Part shown: positions 14,433 to 31,240 of the stretch, in pieces
Layout of the letters: each line of letters begins with the position of its first letter
How positions within the stretch are numbered: position 1 is the stretch's first letter
Assembly (NCBI GenBank): GCA_965215005.1
Contig: CBDCCZ010000018.1
Span: 224,001-288,000, forward strand
From: Kofleriaceae bacterium
Lineage (GTDB): Bacteria > Myxococcota_A > Polyangia > Haliangiales > Haliangiaceae
DNA length: 64,000 nt
Direction of reading: 5' to 3'
The notes under the pieces: generated by a model
Databases searched by the model: none
What the model was told of the DNA's origin: nothing
Seen by the model: only the letters and a program-made list of their open reading frames with translations
Translations under genes and position numbers: made by a program

Positions 14433-15770
14433 ATGAGCGCGAGCGAGTCAGGTATTTGGGTAACACGTGACGGAGGGCAGCCGCGTGTCGTCCTGCGCGC
14501 TGTGCGCATCGAAATCGTCAATGGACCGGGCTCGGGCACCTCGATGACGTTTCAGCAGCCACGCATTCGAGTGGGCGCGCTGCCGGAGAATGACATCGTG
14601 CTCGAGGATCCTCGCGCCTCCGGCGTGCACTTCGAAGTGATGCTCACCGAGACCGGGCTGCGCGTGCGCGATCTCAACTCGACCAATGGCACCGTGGTCG
14701 AAGGGGTTCGTATCGTCGATGGCTACGTTCAGCCGCTACAGCGGATCACCGCCGGACGAACGCAGCTGATGATCGTGCCGACCGGCGCAAGCCACGAGCT
14801 GCCACTCGCCACAGGCGCTGAGTTCGCCGACATCGTCGGTAGCAGCATCGCGATGCAGCGCGTGTTCGGAATGCTCGGCCCGGTGGCGCCAACCGATGCG
14901 ACGGTGCTGCTAACCGGCGAGACGGGCACTGGCAAAGAGGTCGTCGCAGAAGCGATCCACGGCGCCTCGCCGCGAGCCAATGGACCGTTTGTGGTCGTCG
15001 ATTGCGGCGCCATCCCCGCGACGCTGTTCGAAAACGAGCTCTTCGGCCACAAACGCGGCGCGTTCACTGGCGCCGACAGCGACGCTCCTGGGGCTTTCGA
15101 GCGCGCTCACGGTGGCACTCTCATGCTCGACGAAATCGGCGAGCTGCCACTCGACCTTCAGCCCAAGCTGCTTCGCGTCGTGCAGTCGCGGACGGTGCAG
15201 CGCGTCGGCGGGAGCAAGCGCGTGCCGTGTGACGTGCGCATCATCGCCGCGACCAACCGCGATCTACTGCGCGAAATCAATGGCGGCGGGTTTCGCGCCG
15301 ATCTCTACTATCGGCTCGCGGTCGCCCACATCGAGCTGCCACCGCTGCGTGAGCGCGATGGCGACATCGCGCTGCTCGCCCACTACTTTGCCAACGCCAT
15401 CACCGAGGATCCTGGGAGACAACTTCCAGCGGAGCTGATCGAGCAGTTCGAGCGGTACTCGTGGCCCGGCAATATTCGCGAGCTTCGCAACGCGGTCGAG
15501 CGCGCTCTCCTGCTTCCGCACCTGCCCCCTAAGCTCGGCCACGGCGTCTCGGCCGCGCCCGACGGCCCCGGATTTTGGGTTCCGGTCGACACCGCTATCG
15601 GATTCAAAGAAGCGAAACAACAACTCATCGATGAGTTCGACCGGCAGTACGTCACGCAGCTGCTTGATGAGAATCAGCGGAACGTTGCCCGTGCCGCGCG
15701 TGCCGCCGGAATCGACCGCGCGTCATTGCACAAGATCATGGCCCGCGTTGGCATCCAGCGGCCCCAATGA
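14433..15770 (+). CDS. FHA-domain sigma54-dependent transcriptional activator (bEBP)
   Basis: FHA ([12 protein letters not shown]), GETGTGKE Walker [22 protein letters not shown]-terminal Fis-type HTH. Confidence 0.95.
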
Positions 15771-16679
15771 TCCTGCTGCATCCAGCTCCTGCGCCGGCGG
15801 CTGAACCTCAACCACGGTTCCCACAGGGGGAAGCTCAGTCGTCGCCGCGTTGCCAATCTGCGCTTGCACGAAGATCAGCTGCGAAGCGGAATCGACCACC
15901 GCGGCCACCGAGGTGATCGAAGCCTGCCAAGACGTCGCGCCAAGATGGGCCGTTACCGGGGCGCCAACGACAAACGCGGGCGCCCGCTCTGGCCGCACGG
16001 CGAAGCGCAAATCGCGCTCCTGGGACATCAGCTCGACGATGGGCTGCTCGGCCGCAACGGTTGCGCCAGCATCGAAGCGCCGTGCCGCGACATGTCCGGC
16101 CAACGGCGCGCGTAAGGTTGCGCGCTCACGCAGCTGCGCGAGCTGATCGCGAACCGTGCGGTGACGCTCGATTCCCGCGAGGCTTCGCTCGAGCTCCGCC
16201 TGCCCTTGCGCCCGCGCCGACCGCGCATCGCGCAGCTGATTGCTCGCCGCCGCCTGCGCGCGCACCAGCTTCTCGACCGCCCTCACCTCTTGACGTGCCG
16301 TGCGCAACGCGACCCGAGCTTGGGCGGCAATTGCTTGCGCCTCACGCAATGCGCTATCGGCCGCTTCGAGCTCAGCATCGAGCTCTTCGGTCTGCAGGGT
16401 CGCCAATACCGCTCCCTCGGCGACGAAATCACCGACCTCGACGCGCATTTCTTCGACCCGTGCTGGCACCGGCAACGAGACGGCTACCTGGCGTCGCGCC
16501 ACGATGACGCCGATGAATCGCTCCACGCCCCTGCGCGCCGTCGTGGCCACAGGTCGCATCTGCCGCGTCGTAGGTGCCTCGAGCGGAGTGGCCTCACACC
16601 CGGCGATCATCGCGCAGCCGAGCAGTATCGGCAGGTGCCGCGCCACGCCATACCACGGTGAGTCGATGATCCTCTTCAT
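15723..16679 (-). CDS. Periplasmic adaptor (membrane fusion protein), lipoprotein
   Basis: GGAAGGA RBS, lipobox IAGC, lipoyl half motifs [13 protein letters not shown] and LRAPLAGHV around a coiled coil. Confidence 0.85.
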
Positions 16680-18939
16680 TGGCTTCCTTCCAGTCATGCT
16701 CGGGCGCCGTCGGACGAGACCGTCCAGGAGGTGCAGGGTTTTTGCGAGAAGCGCCGAGCTGCGCGCGCACGAGTCGGGCGTAGCGTCCTCCCGCGGCCAG
16801 CAGCTCATCGTGGGTGCCTCGCTCGACGATGCGACCGCGATGCACCACCACGATGAGGTCCGCATCGACCACCGTGCTGAGGCGGTGGGCGATCTGGATG
16901 CGGGTCATGCGGAGCCGCTTGAGCTGACGCACCACGCGCGCCTCCGTCTCCGCATCGAGCGCGCTCGTGGCTTCGTCGAGCAGCAGCGCCACGGGGCGAG
17001 CGAGCAGTGCCCGCGCCAGCGCCAGTCGTTGCCGCTGACCGCCCGATAGCGACTGCCCGCGATCAGCGAGCGGAGTCTCGTAGCCCATCGGCAACTTGGC
17101 GATGTCATCGTGAATGCAGGCGGCCTTGGCCGCCGCAACGACGCGATCGAGGTCCGCATTCGGATCGGCCAGCGCGATGTTGTCGCGAATCGAGGTATCG
17201 AAGAAGTAGGGGTCTTGCGGCACCGTCCCCAGCTGCGCCCGAACCGCACGAAGATCGAGGCGTTCGAGCGGGTGCTCATCGAGCAAGATGCGTCCCGCGG
17301 TTGGCGCGTACAAGCCGAGTAGCAGCGCCGCAAGGGTTGATTTGCCCGATCCAGACTCACCGACGATGGCGACGTTGGTGCCCGCGGGAATCTGCAGCGA
17401 CGTGTCGCGGATGACGTCGGGACCGGCATCGCGATAGCGAAATGAAACCTGGTCGAGCTCGATTGCCCCCGTGAGCCGCGTGATCTTTCCCGGCTCCGAC
17501 TGTTCGGGCTCCACATCGAGAACGTCCTTGAGTCGGTCGAGGTGACCTCGTACCTGTTGCAGGGACAGCGCGCTCGCCACCAAGTTTCCAAGTGGCTCGA
17601 GGAACGAGCCGGCGAGCGCGTTGACCGCCAGCATGGTGCCAAGCGACAGCTCGCCGTGGACCACGCGCACCGCGCCGACGCTGAGGATTGCCAGCGGCGC
17701 GGCCGTGCGGAGGGCGCCGAGCAGCGCATCTACCGTGGCGCGCGACCGGCTCATGTCCAACCCGGCGTTGAGCATGTCAGCCAAATCATGGCTCCAACGC
17801 TCCACCGCCCGCTGCTCGGCTCCTGCTAGCTTCAGGGTGCCGATTGCCGACAGCGCTTGCACCAAGTACGACTGCGAGCGTGCGTTGGCATCGACCACAC
17901 TCGCCTCGAGATCCTCAAAGCGGCGCCGCGTCACGAGAAGGATCACGAGCTGCAGGATTCCAAATCCCGCCACCAGCGCGGCCACGATGGCGTCTGCAAT
18001 CAAGATGATGATCAGATAGAAGACGACGAGCCCGCCGTCGATGAGCGCCGACAACGTCTGCGACGTGAGTAGCTCGCGGATGGTTTGATTGCTGGCGATG
18101 CGCGACAGCAAATCTCCGGTCGAGCGGCGCTGAAAAAAACTATACGGCAAGCTCACCAGATGGCCGACGAAGCCGAGCGTCATCCGGGTATCCAAGTCGG
18201 TGCGCATTTGCAGCAGCAGATGCGCGCGGACCAGCGACGAGAGCATCTTGAACACGACCAGCGTTGCGAGGCCGAGGCCGATCAGGGTGAGCATGTCGAG
18301 ATCGCCCTGGGGAACCACGCGGTCGACGATCAAGCCGGTGAGCAGCGGGACGGCGAGCGCGAACACCTGCAGCAGTGCTGACATCGCAAGGATTCGCCCG
18401 AGTCGCGCGTTCATCTGTCGCAAGAACGCGCGCACCAGGCCGCCGCTCGGCAGCCGGCGCACGAAGGTGTCACCCGGCGCTAGCTCCAGAGCGATTCCGG
18501 TGAATGAACGCGACACCGCCTCGCGGCTCAGCGCGCGCCGCCCGCGCGCCGGATCCACGACGTGCACAAGGCCCCGAGCCACCCGCTCGAGCACCACGAA
18601 GTGATTGAATTCCCAGTGCAGGATGGTGCCCGCCGGCGCATGTTCGAGCTCGTCGAGCTCGAGCGACACGCCGCGTCCGCGCAAGCCGAATCGCTCACCG
18701 GCGGCAACGATGCCGCTGGCGCTGGTGCCCGCGTCGCTGGTCCCCGCCGCAACCCGCACCTCCCCCAGCGGTACGTGGCAGCCGTGATGCGCCAGCACCA
18801 TTGCCAGACACGCGGCGCCGCAGTCGGCAGCCTCCATCTGCCGCACAATCGGAATCCGCCGCCGGCGCGGCACGAGCTTGGTGAGAGCGGGAAATCGCTT
18901 CGTATCGACAGGCGCCAAGGCAGGCGGCGAATTGGCCAT
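16594..18939 (-). CDS. Peptidase C39-containing ABC transporter (PCAT, bacteriocin/RiPP exporter)
   Basis: QMEAADCGAACLAM (catalytic Cys), HWEFNHFVV (His), VVDP (Asp), TM domain, GESGSGKS, LSGGQ, LLLDEATS, IAHRL. Confidence 0.95.
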   Translation of the reverse strand: MANSPPALAPVDTKRFPALTKLVPRRRRIPIVRQMEAADCGAACLAMVLAHHGCHVPLGEVRVAAGTSDAGTSASGIVAAGERFGLRGRGVSLELDELEHAPAGTILHWEFNHFVVLERVARGLVHVVDPARGRRALSREAVSRSFTGIALELAPGDTFVRRLPSGGLVRAFLRQMNARLGRILAMSALLQVFALAVPLLTGLIVDRVVPQGDLDMLTLIGLGLATLVVFKMLSSLVRAHLLLQMRTDLDTRMTLGFVGHLVSLPYSFFQRRSTGDLLSRIASNQTIRELLTSQTLSALIDGGLVVFYLIIILIADAIVAALVAGFGILQLVILLVTRRRFEDLEASVVDANARSQSYLVQALSAIGTLKLAGAEQRAVERWSHDLADMLNAGLDMSRSRATVDALLGALRTAAPLAILSVGAVRVVHGELSLGTMLAVNALAGSFLEPLGNLVASALSLQQVRGHLDRLKDVLDVEPEQSEPGKITRLTGAIELDQVSFRYRDAGPDVIRDTSLQIPAGTNVAIVGESGSGKSTLAALLLGLYAPTAGRILLDEHPLERLDLRAVRAQLGTVPQDPYFFDTSIRDNIALADPNADLDRVVAAAKAACIHDDIAKLPMGYETPLADRGQSLSGGQRQRLALARALLARPVALLLDEATSALDAETEARVVRQLKRLRMTRIQIAHRLSTVVDADLIVVVHRGRIVERGTHDELLAAGGRYARLVRAQLGASRKNPAPPGRSRPTAPEHDWKEANEEDHRLTVVWRGAAPADTARLRDDRRV

Positions 18940-20940
18940 CTAGAAGATCCTCTCGAGTCCTGGGAACAAGCTAATGAGGAGCGACTCCGACCGAACCTCG
19001 ATGTCGACGGTGGCTGCCATCCCGTGATGAAAACGATGGGTGACGCCGTCGATCACGAATCCTTCGCTCGGCAACGCCACCCGCACGAACACCACCGCGG
19101 TGGTGATCGGAACGGCGTCGCCGAGCAGGCTGCCGAGACGACGAGCAGCCGCCCCCGGACCAAGCGCCTCATCGCCAACTTCGACGATCGGCAGCTCGAG
19201 ACGAACACCGCGATGGCCAGCAAGGGAAACACGGGCGCGATCGCCAAGCTCGATGAGAGGACGACGAGCGGCGGGAATGGCCGCCAAGACGCTCATTTCG
19301 GGGTCGGCAGCGACAACGGAGAGGATGGGCGCGCCGGCGGCGACGGTAGCTCCGCTGCGCAAGAGCACTTCGCCGGCCACGCCCGAACGAGGAGCGCGAA
19401 TCGAGTGTCGCTCTACCGCGCGTTCGGCCTGCTCACGCCGTGCACTCAGCTCCACGAGTGCCTGGCCTGCAACCGCGTCTCGCGGATCCATGAGACGCTC
19501 GATGAGGCGACGGTCGAACTGATGCTGGAGCGCGGCAAGCTCGGCTCGGGCACCCTCGTCGCGCAACTGCGCGACCACCTGCCCTGCTTGCACGCGCTCG
19601 CCCGGTTCGACGACGACAGCTTCGAGAACGCCGCTTAGCTCGGCAAGCGCGTCGCTGCGCTCATCAGCGACGACGACGGCAACGCCGCTCGCATACTCGC
19701 CGACCCGACCGACGCATAGATAGACCGCCGCGGCGGCGAAGAACGCGACGATGATCCAGTAGACGATGTTGACCCACGGTGAGTGCACGCGAACAACGTG
19801 CCCGCGGTCCCGCCGGCGCCGGTGCGCGTCGATCGCCTCAGGTCGAAACACGCTGGCTTCGGAGGCGACCGGTTGCGCCTCCAGCCCCCAGGAAAGCGCA
19901 TCGAGGAGAGGCCCACAGGCGGCGGCGAAATCGGCCGCGATGGCACGTTCGCGCGCATCGAAAGGAGCGCCACGCCCGTCTCTAGCCGCGATCCACACCG
20001 CGTGGAGCTCTTCGGCGCCATGGACCGGCTGCACCAGTAGCCGCGCCTTTGGGCCGAGGCCGAGGTCGTCGACCGCCGCGCAATATTGCGGCGCATCACC
20101 GGCCCGTTCGACCGCAAGGCAAACGCCTCGCCGGAGCGCCTCGCCAGCGAGACCGAGCAGGCCCTCGACCTCGAAATCATCACCGGGCTCATCTGCCTCG
20201 TACGCCAGAGTTGCTGCCTCCGCATCGACATAGAGACAACGCGCGCGATCGGCATCGATCAGTTGGGCGAGCTCACGGGCCATGACGCCGCTGCTGTCGC
20301 GCGTGCTTGGCTGCATCGCGACACGCCGCAGCGCAGCGCCGATCTTACCGCGGCCCCGGTCGGCTGGCGGTACCGCATCCACAGCCGTGGGGCTCCATTC
20401 TGCAACCGGGTCGACGCGCACCAGCGGCGCAGTGGGCTGCTCGGCGATCGGTAGCAGCTCGAGTGGGTTTGCGCTGGGGGCCGATGGCCACGATCTCGCT
20501 GCCGCGATGGCGCCGGCACCTGCCACTTGGCCGAACGGTGGGGACGGCTGTCTCACGCTTGGGAGTCCGCTAGAATCCATCCCGCGGTCGCTTGCGGCTT
20601 CGAGCAACGCGCTGCGAAGCGCGTGCGGCGACAAACTCCGGGACAACGGCCGCGCGCGCCGGGAGGGAAGCACCCCAGCAGCGTCGATGAGCGCGAACAC
20701 CGGGCCACACTGCCGCGTGCACAACCACTCAATCAGCGCTGCAGCGTGCTCGGTGGGCGCGCCGACGACGATGGCGTTGAACCCACGCTGACCGACAGCG
20801 GCAACGGCTTGCGCGGCGGTCTCGACGCCAACGACCTCACACGGCGCGAGGCGCTCGCGTAGCCACGACCAGGTTCTTTCGTCAGCGTCGCACACCAGAA
20901 ACGAAGCGAGCGGAGCCGGTGGTCGCGCCGGACGAGCCAT
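18940..20940 (-). CDS. HlyD-family secretion adaptor fused to N-terminal receiver-like and GAF domains
   Basis: N-terminal FLVCDAD...VETAAQAV...IVVG (REC-like); GAF pattern (ADRARCLYVD...GLAG...DAPQY...LLVQPV...PFDARERAIA); SVFRPEAID, TM helix, VEPGERVQAGQVV, IRAPRSGV, GMAATVDIEV; its stop abuts the PCAT ATG. Confidence 0.8.
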   Translation of the reverse strand: MARPARPPAPLASFLVCDADERTWSWLRERLAPCEVVGVETAAQAVAAVGQRGFNAIVVGAPTEHAAALIEWLCTRQCGPVFALIDAAGVLPSRRARPLSRSLSPHALRSALLEAASDRGMDSSGLPSVRQPSPPFGQVAGAGAIAAARSWPSAPSANPLELLPIAEQPTAPLVRVDPVAEWSPTAVDAVPPADRGRGKIGAALRRVAMQPSTRDSSGVMARELAQLIDADRARCLYVDAEAATLAYEADEPGDDFEVEGLLGLAGEALRRGVCLAVERAGDAPQYCAAVDDLGLGPKARLLVQPVHGAEELHAVWIAARDGRGAPFDARERAIAADFAAACGPLLDALSWGLEAQPVASEASVFRPEAIDAHRRRRDRGHVVRVHSPWVNIVYWIIVAFFAAAAVYLCVGRVGEYASGVAVVVADERSDALAELSGVLEAVVVEPGERVQAGQVVAQLRDEGARAELAALQHQFDRRLIERLMDPRDAVAGQALVELSARREQAERAVERHSIRAPRSGVAGEVLLRSGATVAAGAPILSVVAADPEMSVLAAIPAARRPLIELGDRARVSLAGHRGVRLELPIVEVGDEALGPGAAARRLGSLLGDAVPITTAVVFVRVALPSEGFVIDGVTHRFHHGMAATVDIEVRSESLLISLFPGLERIF

Positions 20941-20951
20941 GCAGCGGCCCT

Positions 20952-20968
20952 TTGCACCGGTCGTGCCT
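20952..20968 (-). promoter_or_regulatory. Putative sigma54 promoter of the export operon
   Basis: Minus strand AGGCACGACCGGTGCAA (GG-N10-GC), 15/17 identical to the site at 25565-25581. Confidence 0.7.
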
Positions 20969-21110
20969 CGCTAGATGTCGTGTGATTTCGCTCGCCAAGC
21001 GCGAAACGTGACTGCGCGGCGTTGCCGGCTCGCAACGACTGTAGGCGCGCGGCGACGCCCACTGCGCGCGCCAACGACGAGCGGTATAGTCTTTGCTCAT
21101 TGCGGTCGCG

Positions 21111-24100
21111 ATGCGATGGGAGTCCCCGAAAGGACGCGTAACTGCTGAAGAGCTGGCCGAAACTGTAGCTACCTCGGATACACAAGGTGTAACCAAAGAC
21201 CCAGGTCAGGGTCATCATCCCCCGCCGGACCTACCTAATCCTGGGGATCGGGTCGGCCGCTACCGGCTGGGCTCGGTCATCGGTAGCGGCGGCATGGGCT
21301 GCGTGATGCGCGCCGAGCACGTCGATCTAGGTCGCCAGGTGGCGATCAAGTTCATGCTCACAGCCAAAGAGCAGGCCGAGGCAAACGTCGTGCGCTTCTT
21401 TCGCGAAGCACAGCTCGTCAACCGCATTCGCCACCCGCACGTCGTCGACGTCACCGATATCGACTGGCTACCCAGCGGCGCCGTCTACATCGTCATGGAG
21501 CTGCTGCACGGGCGCTGCCTGCAACGGGCGATCAGCACCGGACCACTGCCGCTGGGTCTCATTCAACGCATCGCGCACCAGTCGGCGGCGGCGCTATCGG
21601 CGGTGCACGCGGCGGGCATCATTCATCGCGACATCAAGCCCGGCAATTTGTTTCTCTGTGATGATCAGGCTGAACCACACCTAAAGATCCTCGACTTTGG
21701 TGTCGCCAAGCTCGGGGCCGACAGCGTTGCAAAGGCAGACGTTCTCACCGTGGCGGGCGGAGTCGTCGGCACGGTCGCCTACATGGCTCCAGAACAAGCA
21801 CGCGCTGAAGAACTCGATGCCCGCGCCGACCTGTTCTCGCTCGCTGCGACGCTCTACGAAGCAGCCACCGGATATCGGCCGTTTCGCAGTCATGCGCTCG
21901 GCGCGTTGGTCCACGAGCACACCACGTACGTGCCGCCGCGGCTTTCACAGGTTTTAGGCGCCGGCGTCGTGCCGGCGGCCCTCGATGAGACCATCGCCAG
22001 TGCGCTTCAGGTCGATCCCCACCGACGCCCCCCCTCCGCCGCCGCATTTGCCGATGCGCTCTCCGGATCCACCCCGCCAGCACGCTCGCTATCGCTGCCG
22101 GCGCCTCGGCCGCGGGCTGCCCGTAGCTCCCGACACACCGCAGTCGCCGTATGCCTTCACGCGCATGGCGCTGGGGCGGCGTTACGTGCGATCGCCGAGG
22201 CCACCGAGGCTGCCGGCGGGCTCGTGCTCGAGCGAAAGGCGAGCGCGCTCACCGCACTATTCGGAGTTCCCGACGTCGACAGCAGCACGTTTGCCCGCGC
22301 GCTCGAGGTTGCCGAAAGCGTTCGCGACGTGAGCATCGTGCTCGAGCTCGGTCGTGTGCGGGTCCGGCGAGCTCCCACAGGCATCGTGGCGACAGGCTCG
22401 CTGCTCACGCGGCTAGCGCGGCTAGCTAGCATCACGTGCCCAGGCCTGCGACTTGGTCCCAACGCGCACCGCTGGGTGTATCCGCTCGCGAGCGGTGATG
22501 CCGAGATGCCGCGGCCCGACGCACGGCCATCGCATCACGGTGAGCTCGTTCGTATGGTCAGCGCCGCTCTGGCTGGCGATGACACCGCCTGCCACATCGT
22601 CATCGACGGGCCGCCAGGCGCGGGCACTACCTACAGCTTGCATACGGCGCGGGAGAAATTCGACGCCTCGGCCCGGTGGCACGCCGCTCGCGCGCGACCG
22701 GGCGATCGCGGTTTCTACGCCACTCTGACGCACCTCGTCCCTGCCCTGGCCGAGCAGCTGCGGGCAGCGCCGACGCGACACGATGAACGAATTGATGCGT
22801 GGCTAACCGCGGAGGTGAGCTCCGGGCCGTTGGTCATTGCCCTCGATGACGCCGAATACGCCGATGAAGCCAGCATGGCGACGCTGCGGCGCCTCGCGGA
22901 GCTCGGCCGTGGAAAGCCGATTGCCGTGATCGTGGCGGGTCACCAACTCGACCACGACGGCGGTCAGCGACTCTCACTCGAGCCGCTCGCCGACCGCGCA
23001 GCAACGCAGCTCGCCGCCGCCCTCGCTCCAGCGGCCTCACGCGCCGAGATTGATGCGGTCGTAGCACGCGCAGCGGGCTGTGCTCGTTACGTCGTCGAGC
23101 TCGCGCGAGACCTCGATGCGAATGGCTCCGGCGCCGAAGAGTCAGCAACATCCCCGGCGCTCGAGCTGGCGACACGAGCGCATCTCGACGCCATGCTTCC
23201 CCACGCCCGACGCATCTACGAAATCGTAGCGATTGCGCAACAGGCGGGCTGGGCGGAGCTATTGGTCGCGCTGGCCGTCGCCCGCGGCTCGACCGCCGAC
23301 GAGGCACGCGAAGCGCTCTGGGAGCTCGAGGAGTGCGGCGCGATCGTGGCGGCGGAGGACGGACCTGCGACTTCTGAGCGATTCGTCGCCGCTGTGCCGG
23401 TTCTCGCCGAGACGGCGTATCGCGAGCTCAGCAGCGAACAGCGCCGCGCCCTGCACCTCGATTTGGCCACCCGCCTCGAAGCGGAGGGTGAGGCCGAAGC
23501 AGTTCCCGCAATTCCGTCTTTGCTCGCCGCGGCCCGCCAGTATGCTGCCGCTGGCGCCATCGATCACGCCGCTCGCTGCGACCGCCGCGCAGGGGCCGCA
23601 CTGCTGGCCGCCGGCGATCATCGCGGTGCGCACGCTGCACTGGTGCGCGCCATCGACGCCAGCGCGCCGTCGAGCGAGCTGCTCGAACAAGCCGGCGACG
23701 CGGCGATGGTTGCCGCCGGTCTGGACGCTGCGCAAGACCTCTATGCGCGGGCCCTCGACCTATCGGAACCCGACGAGCTCACCCGCGCACGCCTATGGCG
23801 CAAGCTCGGCGACTGCGCGACCCAGCGTGGAGACAACGCTGTGGCGGCGGCGTACTACGAGCGGGGGATTGCAGCGCTGGCTCCCGATGGCGAGCTCACG
23901 CCGAGAGCAGAAGCCGACGCGGTGACCGCGGCAGAGCTTTACGCCGCGCTGGGATGGCTGCGCGGCTATCAGCTCGGCGATTTCGAGATTGGCTCGCAAC
24001 TCGGAGCTCGCGCGCTCGAGCTATTGGAGGGAACCGAGCACCAGCAGGCGCTCGCGCACGCTTTGTCGCGGTTGGGTGGCTGCTACATGCGAGGGGGGCG

Positions 24101-24797
24101 CTACGCGGAACAGCTCGCGTGCAACGAGCGGACTCTCGAGGTGTCCATCGGCCTCGGTGATACCTGGATGGAGATGATCGCTCGACTCAACCTCGGAATT
24201 ACCTACTTGACCACCGGAAGGATTACCGAAGCGCGCGCTCAAACCACCCGCGCCTTGGCAATGGCGCGACGCACCGACTCGGTTCGCGTCGAAACCGTGG
24301 CCACCAACAACCTTGGCGCCATCGAGCTCGAAGCCGGAGATCCGTATCGCGCACTCGCTCACTTTGAACGCGCCGCAGAGCTGGTGCTCCGCTCGGGTTA
24401 CCGCTCGGTGCTACCAGAGCTCCACCGCGTCCGCGCTCGCGCCTACGCAGCCATAAACGATCTCCACCGCGCCAACCGCGACGCCCGACGCAGCCGCGCG
24501 CTAGCAACGCAACTCGAGGCCAGCTTCGAGGCCGGGCTTGCCGCGCGCGTGTTGGCGCTGATCGCGCTCCGGCTCGACAACCCGCAGCGGGCGAGCGCGT
24601 TACTCGACGAAGCGGCGGCACAAATCGGCACGCGCGACCCGCTCGAGTGCGCCAGGCTGAGCGTCGCGCGGGCGCTGCTTGCGCGCGCGGAGGGCGCCCC
24701 CGACGCCGATGACCAACTCGCCGCCGCGCACTCCGAGCTCGAGCGCCTCGGCCTCGCCCATGAGATCGCCGCGTTTGCAGCCAACAGCATCCGCTGA
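21111..24797 (+). CDS. Ser/Thr protein kinase with degenerate cyclase-like, P-loop (STAND-like) and TPR domains
   Basis: GSGGMG, VAIK, HRDIKPGN, DFG, YMAPE; ALFGVP cyclase-like segment; DGPPGAGTT and IALDD; TPR-rich C-terminus; start uncertain (21093 TTG or 21111 ATG). Confidence 0.88.
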   Translation: MRWESPKGRVTAEELAETVATSDTQGVTKDPGQGHHPPPDLPNPGDRVGRYRLGSVIGSGGMGCVMRAEHVDLGRQVAIKFMLTAKEQAEANVVRFFREAQLVNRIRHPHVVDVTDIDWLPSGAVYIVMELLHGRCLQRAISTGPLPLGLIQRIAHQSAAALSAVHAAGIIHRDIKPGNLFLCDDQAEPHLKILDFGVAKLGADSVAKADVLTVAGGVVGTVAYMAPEQARAEELDARADLFSLAATLYEAATGYRPFRSHALGALVHEHTTYVPPRLSQVLGAGVVPAALDETIASALQVDPHRRPPSAAAFADALSGSTPPARSLSLPAPRPRAARSSRHTAVAVCLHAHGAGAALRAIAEATEAAGGLVLERKASALTALFGVPDVDSSTFARALEVAESVRDVSIVLELGRVRVRRAPTGIVATGSLLTRLARLASITCPGLRLGPNAHRWVYPLASGDAEMPRPDARPSHHGELVRMVSAALAGDDTACHIVIDGPPGAGTTYSLHTAREKFDASARWHAARARPGDRGFYATLTHLVPALAEQLRAAPTRHDERIDAWLTAEVSSGPLVIALDDAEYADEASMATLRRLAELGRGKPIAVIVAGHQLDHDGGQRLSLEPLADRAATQLAAALAPAASRAEIDAVVARAAGCARYVVELARDLDANGSGAEESATSPALELATRAHLDAMLPHARRIYEIVAIAQQAGWAELLVALAVARGSTADEAREALWELEECGAIVAAEDGPATSERFVAAVPVLAETAYRELSSEQRRALHLDLATRLEAEGEAEAVPAIPSLLAAARQYAAAGAIDHAARCDRRAGAALLAAGDHRGAHAALVRAIDASAPSSELLEQAGDAAMVAAGLDAAQDLYARALDLSEPDELTRARLWRKLGDCATQRGDNAVAAAYYERGIAALAPDGELTPRAEADAVTAAELYAALGWLRGYQLGDFEIGSQLGARALELLEGTEHQQALAHALSRLGGCYMRGGRYAEQLACNERTLEVSIGLGDTWMEMIARLNLGITYLTTGRITEARAQTTRALAMARRTDSVRVETVATNNLGAIELEAGDPYRALAHFERAAELVLRSGYRSVLPELHRVRARAYAAINDLHRANRDARRSRALATQLEASFEAGLAARVLALIALRLDNPQRASALLDEAAAQIGTRDPLECARLSVARALLARAEGAPDADDQLAAAHSELERLGLAHEIAAFAANSIR

Positions 24798-24931: not shown

Positions 24932-25138
24932 TTAGAACTTGCCGCCGCTGTAGAGGCCAGTACCGGTAACTTCGAAGTGAGCTTCCGCCGCCCGGCCGTG
25001 AGCCGCGAACGCCTCGCCACGGTTGTCCCACGCCCAGTCAGCCGCGCCCGTGATCGCTTCGCTAGCCGCGAGCTCGAGCAAGAACCTACCGACACCTCCG
25101 CCGGCGACATTTACAGTATTCAGATCGATGGTCTTCAT
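24932..25138 (-). CDS. Putative double-glycine-leader precursor peptide A (68 aa, bacteriocin-like)
   Basis: MKTIDLNTVNVAGG|GVGRFLLELAASEAITGAADWAWDNRGEAFAAHGRAAEAHFEVTGTGLYSGGKF; GGGAG RBS; downstream hairpin; near a PCAT. Confidence 0.72.
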   Translation of the reverse strand: MKTIDLNTVNVAGGGVGRFLLELAASEAITGAADWAWDNRGEAFAAHGRAAEAHFEVTGTGLYSGGKF

Positions 25139-25564: not shown

Positions 25565-25581
25565 TGGCACAACCGGTGCAA
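25565..25581 (+). promoter_or_regulatory. Putative sigma54 promoter of the precursor B-JmjC operon
   Basis: TGGCACAACCGGTGCAA, close to the TGGCAC-N5-TTGCA consensus, about 40 nt upstream of the ATG. Confidence 0.75.
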
Positions 25582-25622
25582 TCCCCCAACTCGTTCAATC
25601 CACACCTTCAGAGGAGTAAACT

Positions 25623-25838
25623 ATGAAGAACCAGCGAAAGTCTCTCTCTCTCCAAGATCGCGCGCAGCTCCACGATGCCGCGCTCGATACCGTCTCCGGT
25701 GGCACGACGATGCCGCGCATGCCACCGGTCGGTCCAGAGCCGTTTCCGTGGGGCATCATCATCGAGCCTCCTCCGACTGGAGGGCTGCCGTTCCCCACGC
25801 CTCCCGGATTTCCCTACGGCATACCGGGACTGGGCTAA
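25623..25838 (+). CDS. Double-glycine-leader precursor peptide B with proline-rich core (71 aa)
   Basis: GAGGAG RBS; leader ends LHDAALDTVSGG (L-12, L-7, V-4, GG); core TTMPRMPPVGPEPFPWGIIIEPPPTGGLPFPTPPGFPYGIPGLG. Confidence 0.82.
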   Translation: MKNQRKSLSLQDRAQLHDAALDTVSGGTTMPRMPPVGPEPFPWGIIIEPPPTGGLPFPTPPGFPYGIPGLG

Positions 25839-25841
25839 CCG

Positions 25842-27080
25842 ATGGTCGCGGGTTCGTCCGTCGGAGCTCGAGAAGCGCACGATGAGGCTCCGGCGGCGGC
25901 CCTCGCCGCCCTGTTCGGTAGCGACGGCGCACGAGCTTTCGCCGGCCCACATTGGCCGCATCACCCGTTCGTCGTCCATCGCACGCTCTCGCAGCTGCCG
26001 AGCGCACTGCGGGCACCGCTGCTACTCGACCCGCGCGCCCTTGCTGCCGTCTACCGCGGCACCGTCGAGGTAACGAACGGTCGCGCGGGCCAATTTCGCC
26101 TCAGCGGCGTCGATCCGAATGTCTACTTTGAAGTATTAGGCCTTGCGACTCGCTTTAGCGAGCTCCAGCAATACGTGCCCCAAGCAGCATCGTACTTGCG
26201 CGAGCTCGAGGCCGCCCTGGGCGCGCCGAATGGCTGCGCGAGCCTTCATGCGTTTGTTAATCCGGCTCATGTGGGTCTCGCCGCGCACTGCGATCCGGCG
26301 GAGCATATCGCTGTGCAACTCGCCGGCAAGAAGCGGTTCAAGGTGCTGCGCAACGAGGTTCCCTATGCGGCAGTCTCCCATGGTGCTCGTCGCCCCCCTT
26401 CACGCCGCACACTAGCGACGATTGGTGGTCATCTGCCGCGCTGGGAGCGACTTCCCGAGACCGCAGAGACCATTGACCTCGAGCCGGGCTCGGTCCTATT
26501 CATGCCGCGCGGCACGTATCACGAGACTCTCGGCGGTGAAGGCGAGCCATCCGTCACGCTCGTCATTCAACTCGCAGTTCCCAGTGCAGCAGACGTCTTC
26601 TTAGACTATCTACGCGACTATTTGGCGCAGGCAACACCTTGGCGCCAGCCGCTCTTACACACCTGGCGCGGCGCCTCTCCGGCCGCACAGGCGCACCTTC
26701 GAGACAGTCTCGATGACCTTGCCGAGCGACTCCTCCGCCTATCGCCTCAACAAATGATCGATGCGCGCTCTCCTGCACTCACGCTCGATTACGCACGATT
26801 GGTTCGCGCGCCGGGCGTCGAGGTCCGCGTCACAATCGACGACGACCAAATGTGCGTCCAGTTCGTAGCCGACGATCGCAGAGCCAGCGCCCCGGTCGAG
26901 CTGGCAGCCGAGCTGAGCAGCGTCTTCGACTGGCTGCTCGCACAAACCGACCCATTCTCGCTCGCGGCCGCGCAACAGGCCCTCCCAGAGTGGGAGCCGG
27001 ACGCTATCGAGGCAGTGGCGCAGTTTCTGCTCGCGCGTGGTGCGTTGCTCTCGCTTCCCATCGAGCCGTTCAATGCGTAA
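25842..27080 (+). CDS. JmjC/cupin-4 Fe(II)/2-oxoglutarate oxygenase (RoxA/YcfD-like) with C-terminal winged-helix
   Basis: LAAHCD (HxD), QLAGKKRF, LEPGSVLFMPRGTYHET (distal His); starts 3 nt after the precursor B stop. Confidence 0.88.
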   Translation: MVAGSSVGAREAHDEAPAAALAALFGSDGARAFAGPHWPHHPFVVHRTLSQLPSALRAPLLLDPRALAAVYRGTVEVTNGRAGQFRLSGVDPNVYFEVLGLATRFSELQQYVPQAASYLRELEAALGAPNGCASLHAFVNPAHVGLAAHCDPAEHIAVQLAGKKRFKVLRNEVPYAAVSHGARRPPSRRTLATIGGHLPRWERLPETAETIDLEPGSVLFMPRGTYHETLGGEGEPSVTLVIQLAVPSAADVFLDYLRDYLAQATPWRQPLLHTWRGASPAAQAHLRDSLDDLAERLLRLSPQQMIDARSPALTLDYARLVRAPGVEVRVTIDDDQMCVQFVADDRRASAPVELAAELSSVFDWLLAQTDPFSLAAAQQALPEWEPDAIEAVAQFLLARGALLSLPIEPFNA

Positions 27081-29133: not shown

Positions 29134-30984
29134 TTACTGCGGCGTCTGACCCGGATTAAGGGCGCCAAAGGTGGAGTCGCCCTGGGTCCAGTCGCTCGAG
29201 TCGTTCGCGTCGGTGTCGCTTAGCCGCTGCAGCGAGGGTCCCGTCGATTCGGCTGGCGCGGCATTGTTGTTGTAGACCGCGTGCGGGTGGAAATCGCCAT
29301 CCACGAAGCCCATCGCTGGGACTCCGCCGCCGACCATCTGCCACTGCGCCGCCGCCGCCACCACCGCTGCCTGTGCTTCGGTGCCTGCAGCGGTATTGGG
29401 CTCGTACATCGGATCATCGACCGCTTGATCGGTCACGAAAACGGCGTCGAGAATCGCGCCAGCAGCGTCATAGAGGGTAAACACGTTGTTGGTGCGGGTG
29501 AGGCCGCTATCTGCCGACCACCAGTCGAACGCGGTGTCGTAGTTGCCAGCGTACTCCGCAGCCGGCTGGGCAGCGATGCCGTCGCGCTCGTCGACGACGC
29601 TAGCTGGGGCACACCTAGCGGTATCGAGGTGAACGACGATGAGGTCATTGGTAGCGACCTCGAAGTCGCTGAAGGTGATGAGCGTTTCGCGATCGCGTTC
29701 CTGCAGCACGACGCCGTTCATCGTGCCTCCGCTGAGCACGCGGAGCTCGATGAGGTCGCATTGGCCATTGTTCTCGCCAACGATGTTGGACTTCACCTCG
29801 TTGATGCGCACAGCGGCCACCGCGGTGTAGCCCGCAAAGGTAGCGGTGTTGGCGTCAGCTGCCACGGGCTCGCCATCGCGATCGGTCACGGTGTCGGCCA
29901 CGGTAACGGTGTAGTCGGCGGCGGTTTGCGCGGCGGTCGTGAGAACCACGGTGGTGTCATCGGCGGGGTCGAGCGCGGCGCCGGTGACGGCGAGCGCGGT
30001 GCCGCTGCTATCGATGATGCTGAAGCCAGCGGCTACGACCGAGTCAGTCGCAAGTGGCCGGCTGAAGGAGAGCCGCACCTCGGTGGCGGAGGCGGCAACC
30101 GCCGTGTTCAAGCGCGGCGAAGCGCATTGAGTGATCGTCACGTCCTCGGCGACGAACGCGGCGAGCTGCAGTCGGTCGCGGAATCGACCGACGGGCGTTG
30201 CTCGAAGTGAAAACATGCAGCCTTCGGTGAGACCGAGCTCGTCATCGAGCTCCTCGGGTACACGCAGCAAGAAATTTGCCTCACCCGTGATACCCGGGGT
30301 TTCGATCGTAGCGGCCTGAAATCCACTACCGGCGAAATCGAAGGCCGAGGTAACGGTGCCGCTCATCGTGATCAGCTCGCTCTCGTAGTCGTCGATGTTA
30401 GTCACCAGGTCGGTGGCGCTGGAGAGATCCTGCACGAGCGGCATGAGGTCGTTTGCTTCGCTGCTGCGAGCCCAGTCGGTGAGCGCCGTGGCTTGCCGCA
30501 ACCCATTGACGGTGCCCATCGAGGTAATCGTGAAGCTGACGGCATCGCCCACCGCGGGAGCTGGTGTCAACGTGGTCGGATCAATGGCGACGAAGAGCGC
30601 CGGCCCGGTTGCATCGACCTGCACGGTGAACCCGGCGACGTCACTGCCGATGCTCGGCTTTAAATAGGTTACGAAGGCGTTGACGATGGCGATAGAGAGG
30701 CCTTCGCCGTCGGCGGCCGCACGCGCAGCAGCGATGCCTTCTGCGCCGGGGTCCGTGGGATCGGTCGGGTCCGTGGGATCGGTCGGGTCCGTGGGATCGG
30801 TCGGGTCCGTGGGATCGGTCGGGTCCGTGGGATCGGTCGGGTCCGTGGGATCGGTGGGATCCGTTGGGTCCGTGGGCATCGCGTCGGGCATGTCATTGCC
30901 GGACGAGCCTTCGTCGTCGCCACAAGCGGCAGCCATCATCGCTGCCACAAACAAGAGCAGTCCAAACCATTTCAAGCGGAGCAT
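29134..30984 (-). CDS. Acidic surface lipoprotein with PTD repeat linker, Ig-like and lamin-tail-like domains
   Basis: Lipobox AAAC-GDD, (PTD)n, VRLSFSRPL...YTVTV (Ig-like), VRINEV...DLIELR...TFGALN (LTD-like). Confidence 0.8.
   Translation of the reverse strand: MLRLKWFGLLLFVAAMMAAACGDDEGSSGNDMPDAMPTDPTDPTDPTDPTDPTDPTDPTDPTDPTDPTDPTDPTDPTDPGAEGIAAARAAADGEGLSIAIVNAFVTYLKPSIGSDVAGFTVQVDATGPALFVAIDPTTLTPAPAVGDAVSFTITSMGTVNGLRQATALTDWARSSEANDLMPLVQDLSSATDLVTNIDDYESELITMSGTVTSAFDFAGSGFQAATIETPGITGEANFLLRVPEELDDELGLTEGCMFSLRATPVGRFRDRLQLAAFVAEDVTITQCASPRLNTAVAASATEVRLSFSRPLATDSVVAAGFSIIDSSGTALAVTGAALDPADDTTVVLTTAAQTAADYTVTVADTVTDRDGEPVAADANTATFAGYTAVAAVRINEVKSNIVGENNGQCDLIELRVLSGGTMNGVVLQERDRETLITFSDFEVATNDLIVVHLDTARCAPASVVDERDGIAAQPAAEYAGNYDTAFDWWSADSGLTRTNNVFTLYDAAGAILDAVFVTDQAVDDPMYEPNTAAGTEAQAAVVAAAAQWQMVGGGVPAMGFVDGDFHPHAVYNNNAAPAESTGPSLQRLSDTDANDSSDWTQGDSTFGALNPGQTPQ
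30749..30875. repeat. Coding tandem repeat, 18-bp unit GGGTCCGTGGGATCGGTC (about 14 x 9 bp), encoding (PTD)14
   Basis: Directly visible: five perfect 18-mers followed by degenerate copies. Confidence 0.95.
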
Positions 30985-31240
30985 GCGCGCCTTATACACC
31001 ACTTCTGGGGCGATACCGTCTCGTCACTTCACTCGCTCGTTGCAAACGAACATAAGCGGAATTCCTTGGCATTTGCCGAACCAGCGACCAAAGCTCGGCG
31101 GCCGATGAGTCCTCCCATAACCTCCTGCGACCGAGTGAGCTGCCGATCTCTACGAACGGCATTCTTTTGTTGCAGCAGGTAGTCGATGGTCCTACTCCAG
31201 CGTTTGTAAGCAACACTTTGATTTGCAAGGAGTAACTGGA

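Follow-up and report, generated by a model that had tools for sequence, protein, structure and literature searches.

A putative two-gene RiPP cassette that pairs a JmjC oxygenase with precursor peptides sharing a Gly-hydrophobic-Pro motif

In the window, by which the whole 64,000-nucleotide stretch of DNA analysed here is meant, a short precursor gene is followed directly by a gene for a JmjC Fe(II)/2-oxoglutarate (2OG) oxygenase, and the two genes probably constitute a RiPP cassette in which the oxygenase would oxidise a Gly-x-Pro (G-x-P) motif of the precursor core. Comparison of homologous loci indicated that the precursor and the oxygenase form a real pair. The family that they represent is probably undescribed, since neither a G-x-P/JmjC family nor a JmjC prolyl hydroxylase was found in the literature searched, the coverage of which was incomplete. 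The features of the cassette are as follows:

25610..25616, + strand: Shine-Dalgarno sequence of the precursor gene (AGAGGAG), assigned from the sequence
25623..25703, + strand: precursor leader, 27 aa, double-glycine type with L-12, L-7 and V-4, the GG ending at residue 27
25704..25838, + strand: precursor core (44 aa) and stop codon, assigned from the sequence
25752..25760, + strand: degenerate motif copy GII in the core
25782..25790, + strand: G-x-P copy GLP
25806..25814, + strand: G-x-P copy GFP
25818..25826, + strand: G-x-P copy GIP
25842..27080, + strand: JmjC Fe(II)/2OG oxygenase, 412 aa, of the YxbC/MINA53/NO66/RoxA structural lineage

Reading of the open reading frames gave a precursor of 71 aa (25623-25838, +), and the description of this peptide in the original prediction was confirmed throughout, including the canonical GG leader, the length and make-up of the core, and the position of the oxygenase ATG (25842) 3 nt past the precursor stop. 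The core contains 15 Pro, 8 Gly, 2 Glu and a single Arg, which falls outside the G-x-P motif, and it lacks Cys, Ser, Asn, Asp, His, Lys, Ala and Gln; FPWGII (at 25743), FPYGIP (at 25809), two PFP units and one internal TGG (at 25776) are all present. The leader aligns as a homologue with those in loci L002, L003, L034 and L035, and among the homologous precursors the double-glycine consensus is kept while the core varies, as in RiPP leaders. The precursor had no match in Pfam or NCBIfam, and its best score in the ESM Atlas was 0.87, which is a lead only. A candidate paralogue on contig C58 (tblastn E 0.006) lay inside other open reading frames and was judged a chance match. At L031:11957-12158, directly after the closest orthologue of the oxygenase, there is a second GG-leader peptide without G-x-P whose core begins PEPVPW (PEPFPW in the window core), and the window core may be a hybrid of the two types.

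Proline-rich antimicrobial peptides have a Pro- and Arg-rich cationic core. The window core, with one Arg, no Lys and two Glu, does not conform to this type, and the Pro content of the 14 motif-bearing cores ranges from 9 to 34%. Pro-richness is thus not a trait of the family, and the likeness to these antimicrobial peptides that had been suggested for the window core is therefore weak.

The placement of the oxygenase was examined on a tree of 153 JmjC sequences, from which matches below 230 bits or shorter than 280 aa and duplicate loci were left out. The oxygenase fell into a clade of 30 rows (support 0.998), about half of which are proteins without DNA context. Sixteen distinct clade loci have DNA, namely the window, L002, L003, L004, L034-L042, L092, L195 and L203, the last of which (486 bits) was found after the tree. 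A candidate precursor was present in 15 of these 16 loci, the remaining one (L039) being cut 57 nt upstream, and the coupling of precursor and oxygenase first noticed in the window is thus a recurrent arrangement. The clade is rare and patchy, occurring in 4 of 147 genomes of the order and accounting for six high-scoring sequences among 11 matches in 401 genomes of the class. Searches for further members yielded 2 of 73 genomes in the family of G353, both already in the set, and none among 182 genomes in the class of G393; a search with the L042 precursor returned one near-copy only.

L002 (49% identity) and L003 (44%), the nearest orthologues detected in the order, each have a leader-homologous peptide gene directly upstream. 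In the branch that includes these loci (branch A), the GG-leader genes lie just upstream of the enzyme, and their cores contain N-G-I-P twice (L002, L034), D-G-I-P and Y-G-L-P (L003), or Q-G-I-P (L035). In the sister branch (branch B), five loci (L042, L038, L203, L041, L195) combine a GG leader with one or two copies of I-G-F-P-P, and four (L036, L037, L040, L092) have another leader, ending in VRAG; in these four the precursor gene is downstream of the enzyme and the core of 10-11 aa carries Q-G-W-P-P. Two precursors known without DNA context, P0163 and P0164, also have G-I-P. L004/L033 is an exception inside the clade and counts against a role of the motif throughout it: its candidate core lies approximately 2 kb upstream of the enzyme, in a larger cluster that holds a second JmjC gene and a methyltransferase gene, and has neither G-x-P nor Pro.

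A blind rule, which required a ribosome binding site, an ATG and an open reading frame of 30-130 aa adjoining the enzyme and containing G[ILFW]P, was positive in 10 of 15 clade loci versus 6 of 178 outgroup loci, and none of the latter six was leader-like on inspection. The five clade loci missed by the rule were three with visible precursors whose ribosome binding site did not match the pattern, one truncated locus, and L004. A strict leader-pattern scan, run with no positive control, gave one candidate in the 178 outgroup loci. Reading of the open reading frames in the window, L031, L032, L035 and L208 identified no second modifying enzyme adjoining the pair.

The most conserved feature of the cores is the motif itself. 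G-[I/L/F/W]-P was found in 14 of the 15 candidate cores, under two unrelated leader types and in cores from 10 to 62 residues long, and it was absent from all 15 leaders. With the core of L004 set aside, no residue pair (gap 0-4) other than G.P occurs in every one of the 14 remaining cores. In shuffles that kept composition, some pair was common to all seven representative cores in 218 of 3000 trials, and a residue-class-residue triplet was common to them in none of 20000 shuffles, or in one of 20000 when seven of eight cores were required with L004 included; in the real sequences G-hydrophobic-P is the only such triplet that the seven cores share. Because the cores are related and not fully independent, these counts overstate the significance. 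FP[WY]G, on which attention had originally been focused, occurs in two of the 15 cores (two copies in the window, three in L003), and since FP[WY]G, Pro-richness and the internal GG all vary among the cores, the conserved unit is G-[I/L/F/W]-P. The pairing and the motif together suggest that the precursor core undergoes a post-translational change, although G-x-P may instead serve recognition or activity without being modified itself.

The oxygenase scored above the Pfam cut-offs for PF08007 (Cupin_8; 35.5 bits vs 22) and PF13621 (JmjC_2; 36.6 vs 27.4) and had no match in NCBIfam. Its metal triad, H149-D151-H227, and K164 are invariant in 20 of 20 aligned clade rows, and alignment to MINA53 and YxbC suggests that K164 is the basic 2OG-binding residue. 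In a search with the single sequence, B. subtilis YxbC was the only solved relative (E 1e-15), and a search with the clade profile returned YxbC (E 6e-44), MINA53 (5e-11), NO66 (approximately 1e-8) and RoxA (7e-6). The predicted structure (pLDDT 91.9) gave fold matches with YxbC at Z 26.7 (rmsd 2.5 A over 289 residues), NO66 and MINA53 at approximately 21.6, and RoxA at approximately 18. As in NO66 and MINA53, a JmjC core, a helical middle and a C-terminal domain align over residues 18-405, and the HxD...H and PRG-x-x-H motifs are shared with RoxA/YcfD, MINA53, NO66 and YxbC; however, identity to these four proteins is 16-23%, and polar target-binding residues are replaced (Tyr by Phe138, Ser/Thr by Val241). 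The C-terminal beta/alpha domain spans approximately residues 315-405. In an RRE check the order of elements fitted at residues 319-398 of the full model, whereas the isolated domain was poorly modelled (pLDDT 59), and fold searches with this domain alone gave no clear match.

The gene content is myxobacterial, and the genes on the upstream side of the cassette include candidates for its regulation and for export of the peptide:

14433..15770, + strand: FHA-sigma54 activator, candidate regulator of the promoter at 25565
15723..16865, - strand: second membrane-fusion (RND/HlyD-type) adaptor
16594..18939, - strand: C39-peptidase ABC exporter (PCAT), with the Cys/His/Asp motifs present
18940..20940, - strand: HlyD-type adaptor with a long N-terminal extension
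21093..24797, + strand: Ser/Thr kinase-AAA-TPR protein, candidate upstream regulator
24932..25138, - strand: second double-glycine peptide, 68 aa, with its own ribosome binding site, a very short leader and an Ala/Gly-rich, Pro-free core
25565..25580, + strand: sigma54-type -24/-12 promoter-like site, 58 nt before the precursor ATG, putative in function

The promoter-like site has one mismatch to the sigma54 consensus, and the pattern matched twice in the window versus 0.26 matches expected. Similar TGGC-N8-TGCA-like sites are located 79-91 nt upstream of the three nearest precursor homologues, those of L002, L034 and L003, and sites with up to two mismatches were found in 4 of the 13 upstream regions examined, the background being 0.3% per 120 nt. 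A scan for sigma70 promoters and terminators detected nothing above chance.

The PCAT is the likely candidate for removing the leader and exporting the core. It lies 6.7 kb from the precursor on the opposite strand and is one of three C39 matches in the genome. A PCAT was found near only two of seven long homologous loci, so that export by the neighbouring transporter appears no more than plausible; at the branch B locus L209, the adjacent PCAT is 51% identical to that of the window and is accompanied by the kinase and adaptors, a set similar to that at 14433-24797 of the window. A kinase also flanks L033. The leader consensus and the nearby PCAT with two adaptors resemble those of double-glycine peptides exported by C39 ABC transporters; unlike such peptides, the window core does not resemble a bacteriocin, and an oxygenase gene accompanies it. 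The second double-glycine peptide (24932-25138), which has no family match, is encoded on the same strand as the exporter genes and is probably a client of the exporter and not a substrate of the oxygenase, because its core has no Pro. On the other side of the cassette, tandem T-D-P repeats are encoded at 30680-30870, in the N-terminal part of a secreted protein (29134-31002, -).

The most probable interpretation, in which we have fair confidence, is a scheme in which the cassette would be expressed from the sigma54-type promoter, the JmjC enzyme would bind the precursor, probably via its leader, and, with Fe(II), 2OG and O2, would oxidise Gly-hydrophobic-Pro, of which the window core has three copies; a C39 exporter, probably that at 16594-18939, would then cleave after the leader GG and secrete the modified core. 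A prediction of the enzyme-precursor complex scored 0.47 versus 0.05 for the best control, with a partner pLDDT of 45 and agreement between runs in at least 30% of contacts. Of 157 solved pairs 116 reach the mark for this score, as do 2 of 215 mismatched pairs; at 0.60 or below it is reached by 18 of the 157 solved pairs and by both of the mismatches, so that the prediction gives weak support for precursor binding.

What would be done to the motif can be stated only tentatively. A bolder reading, to which we give somewhat less than even confidence, is that the clade represents an undescribed RiPP family in which a stand-alone JmjC enzyme installs a class-defining change at every Gly-hydrophobic-Pro, either prolyl hydroxylation or chemistry that goes further than hydroxylation, such as desaturation, ring closure or cleavage of the backbone at Gly. 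As to the site, beta (C3) hydroxylation of the middle residue of G-x-P, which is Ile or Leu in the window and Phe or Trp in the sister branch, is the leading single candidate, though well below even odds. C3 hydroxylation is the reaction described for related ribosomal oxygenases (PMC5862942), and Y167 and S257 of MINA53, to which F138 and Q243 of the oxygenase align, are described as binding the target side chain (PMC9994133). In the window's sub-branch, positions 104/136/243 hold R/H/Q; the seven sister-branch loci that have Phe/Trp cores show G/(A,T,S)/A there. Position 104 presumably also contributes to the pocket. Pocket residues that are smaller where the middle residue is aromatic would be expected if that residue sits in the pocket; on the tree, however, this difference corresponds to one switch only, and the residues were mapped through alignments at 16-23% identity. 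Against the middle residue, the R/H/Q pocket is polar for an Ile or Leu side chain. Hydroxylation of the Pro of G-x-P, which had been put forward originally, is the competing candidate and is judged slightly less probable than the middle residue; in its favour, only two core residues are invariant, of which Pro is one, and a 2OG enzyme of another fold makes 3-hydroxyproline in a RiPP (PMC13060819). Desaturation, ring formation or backbone cleavage at G-x-P, taken as a separate outcome, appears unlikely.

The possibility that G-x-P serves for recognition only, and that a promiscuous enzyme beta-hydroxylates the residue before Gly (Trp/Tyr in the window; Asn, Asp, Gln or Ile in relatives), was judged distinctly unlikely. 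In the window's branch W, Y, D, N and Q are frequent at this place, and each of them is a known or plausible target of C3 hydroxylation. The polar R/H/Q pocket would also suit this possibility, FIH is described as promiscuous (PMC4543633), and CgnC oxidises a Tyr-Trp core (PMC10070186). Yet R104, H136, F138 and Q243 are identical in the window, L002 and L003 while the residue before Gly spans Asn to Trp, and MINA53 and NO66, the close structural relatives, are reported to be narrow in selectivity (PMC9994133). Even less support was found for the original suggestion of an oxidised or cross-linked Trp/Tyr in FP[WY]G, with the internal GG freeing two sub-cores, which is most improbable. The repetition of FP[WY]G in the window and L003 is compatible with it, and 2OG-dependent macrocyclisation in RiPPs was reportedly the subject of a study by Xia in 2025, to judge from its title. 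However, as FP[WY]G occurs in only those two of the 15 cores and neither Trp nor Tyr is present in five of them, a Trp/Tyr cross-link is not the conserved reaction; in L002, the closest orthologue, Asn takes that place. The internal TGG is not conserved, is preceded by three Pro at -4 to -6 with no leader consensus, and shares its second Gly with a G-L-P copy, which argues against the release of two sub-cores.

It was also considered that the enzyme might be a RoxA-like protein hydroxylase, acting on L16 or another cellular protein, with the peptide an unmodified bacteriocin-like neighbour. RoxA, MINA53 and NO66 share the fold, a 42% relative is named L16 Arg81 hydroxylase in one database, and a small open reading frame with the motif is missing from 172 of 178 outgroup loci, so the wider family may act on proteins. 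Nevertheless, the clade-profile match to RoxA is weak beside that to YxbC (E 7e-6 vs 6e-44), BLASTP against E. coli RoxA gave a 49-residue match only (E 0.004), and the ROXA winged-helix domain (PF20514, WHD_ROXA) is absent from the oxygenase and was not found in the 92.8% complete genome. The Arg-binding residues of the RoxA-type enzyme are D118 and S208 in R. marinus numbering (PMC5862942), which would correspond to D110 and S199 of E. coli RoxA; in the oxygenase the Asp is matched by A133 or S134 and the Ser by V241. With no orthology-level match and with the Arg-binding Asp and Ser replaced, the sequence comparison indicates that the oxygenase is not RoxA. Unlike ribosomal oxygenases, moreover, the clade is patchy and precursor-linked, with precursors on either side of the gene, and the possibility of a RoxA-like hydroxylase is accordingly highly improbable. 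It is very unlikely, finally, that the pair is only part of a pathway, with the oxygenase depending on a partner or an earlier modification from genes located elsewhere. PhaI, BipG and PbsQ are described as acting only after an arginase, and CgnC as needing CgnB/CgnE; some sister-branch loci have an ATP-grasp gene (L041, L209) or a small Cys-rich open reading frame (L037, L092). On the other hand, no partner gene is common to the clade loci, and the window, L031, L032 and L035 have the pair only.

The closest known parallel is CzlI of the curacozole cluster, a JmjC enzyme with YxbC as its closest structure, which is reported to turn Phe into Tyr (PMC11575548). As in the window, the czlI gene is directly beside the precursor gene and YxbC is the top structural match (Z 23.7 for CzlI), and CzlI hydroxylates a hydrophobic residue of a RiPP precursor, the class of target proposed here. 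CzlI differs, in a comparison made by description, in that it is an optional tailoring enzyme of a Streptomyces YcaO azole pathway that hydroxylates one Phe ring, whereas the window oxygenase is apparently the sole modifying enzyme, acting with a GG leader and a repeated G-x-P. PhaI (PMC8784127), BipG (PMC12707348) and PbsQ (PMC12257519) are likewise PF08007/JmjC or cupin-like 2OG hydroxylases of RiPP precursors, and they are described as hydroxylating ornithine at C4; the PhaI precursor also has a GG leader-core junction and a peptidase exporter. Unlike in these systems, no arginase is near the window pair and the core has one Arg. JmjC peptide hydroxylases with non-canonical targets are thus already known, and the earlier premise that the JmjC family targets only Arg and His did not hold.

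Among other 2OG enzymes, PesO of the nitrilobacillins, a 2OG-HExxH prolyl 3-hydroxylase, makes 3-hydroxyproline in a bacterial RiPP (PMC13060819), but with an HExxH and not a JmjC fold, another motif and another pathway. CgnC of the crocagins, a functional analogue, is a myxobacterial Fe/2OG dioxygenase that oxidises a ribosomal core (PMC10070186); it differs in acting on a C-terminal Ile-Tyr-Trp core. No clade core ends in Tyr-Trp, the genes flanking the window pair are accounted for, and the pair does not conform to the crocagin type. A link between CgnC and YxbC was considered and dropped, as the main text of PMC10070186 neither connects CgnC with YxbC nor describes it as JmjC. A 2010 paper noted genes of the MINA/YxbC type in bacterial peptide clusters (PMC2938197), a 2025 paper noted JmjC proteins in RiPP-like contexts (PMC12710340), and according to a review prolyl hydroxylases lie outside the JmjC subfamily (PMC4543633).

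In the literature covered, the JmjC enzymes of RiPP pathways are optional tailoring enzymes that act on Phe or ornithine, whereas the window oxygenase seems to be the sole modifying enzyme and to follow a motif of three residues through leaders that are unrelated and cores of widely different length. Prolyl hydroxylation by a JmjC enzyme, or a reaction on the backbone, would be new chemistry. If Pro were the target, JmjC chemistry would extend to a residue otherwise handled by other 2OG folds; if the middle residue were the target, the two branches would provide a pair of beta-hydroxylases (Ile/Leu vs Phe/Trp) with a readable specificity switch; and if every Gly-hydrophobic-Pro were modified, the motif would be a portable three-residue tag for site-specific peptide oxidation. 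The chemistry is testable with two short genes, and the clade is the closest lineage found with a candidate substrate for the orphan structure YxbC.

Several other loci with peptide or JmjC genes were observed. At L033:6430-11926, a short GG peptide with a 9-aa Pro-free core is grouped with a TylF methyltransferase gene, a kinase gene, two JmjC genes and an acetamidase-family gene. A conserved Cys-rich open reading frame of approximately 130 aa with no Pfam match is located between the G-W-P precursor and the HlyD/PCAT genes at L037:7439-7885 and L092:958-1539. Directly after a JmjC gene just outside the clade, L117:6279-6818 encodes 167 aa with eight hydrophobic-hydrophobic-G-R-hydrophobic repeats, a candidate multi-site substrate. 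Three more JmjC genes surround a long-leader precursor (start 134005) at G000:C14:131643-137846; the 23-aa core of this precursor has no Cys and two ENWG repeats, and a 631-aa open reading frame in the same region looks, on visual inspection, like a LanM dehydratase domain. G000:C31:37945-38121 (-) encodes a further GG-leader peptide, whose 23-aa core is bacteriocin-like and lacks G-x-P, and weaker candidates were found at C31:31568, C39:3724 and C23:6633.
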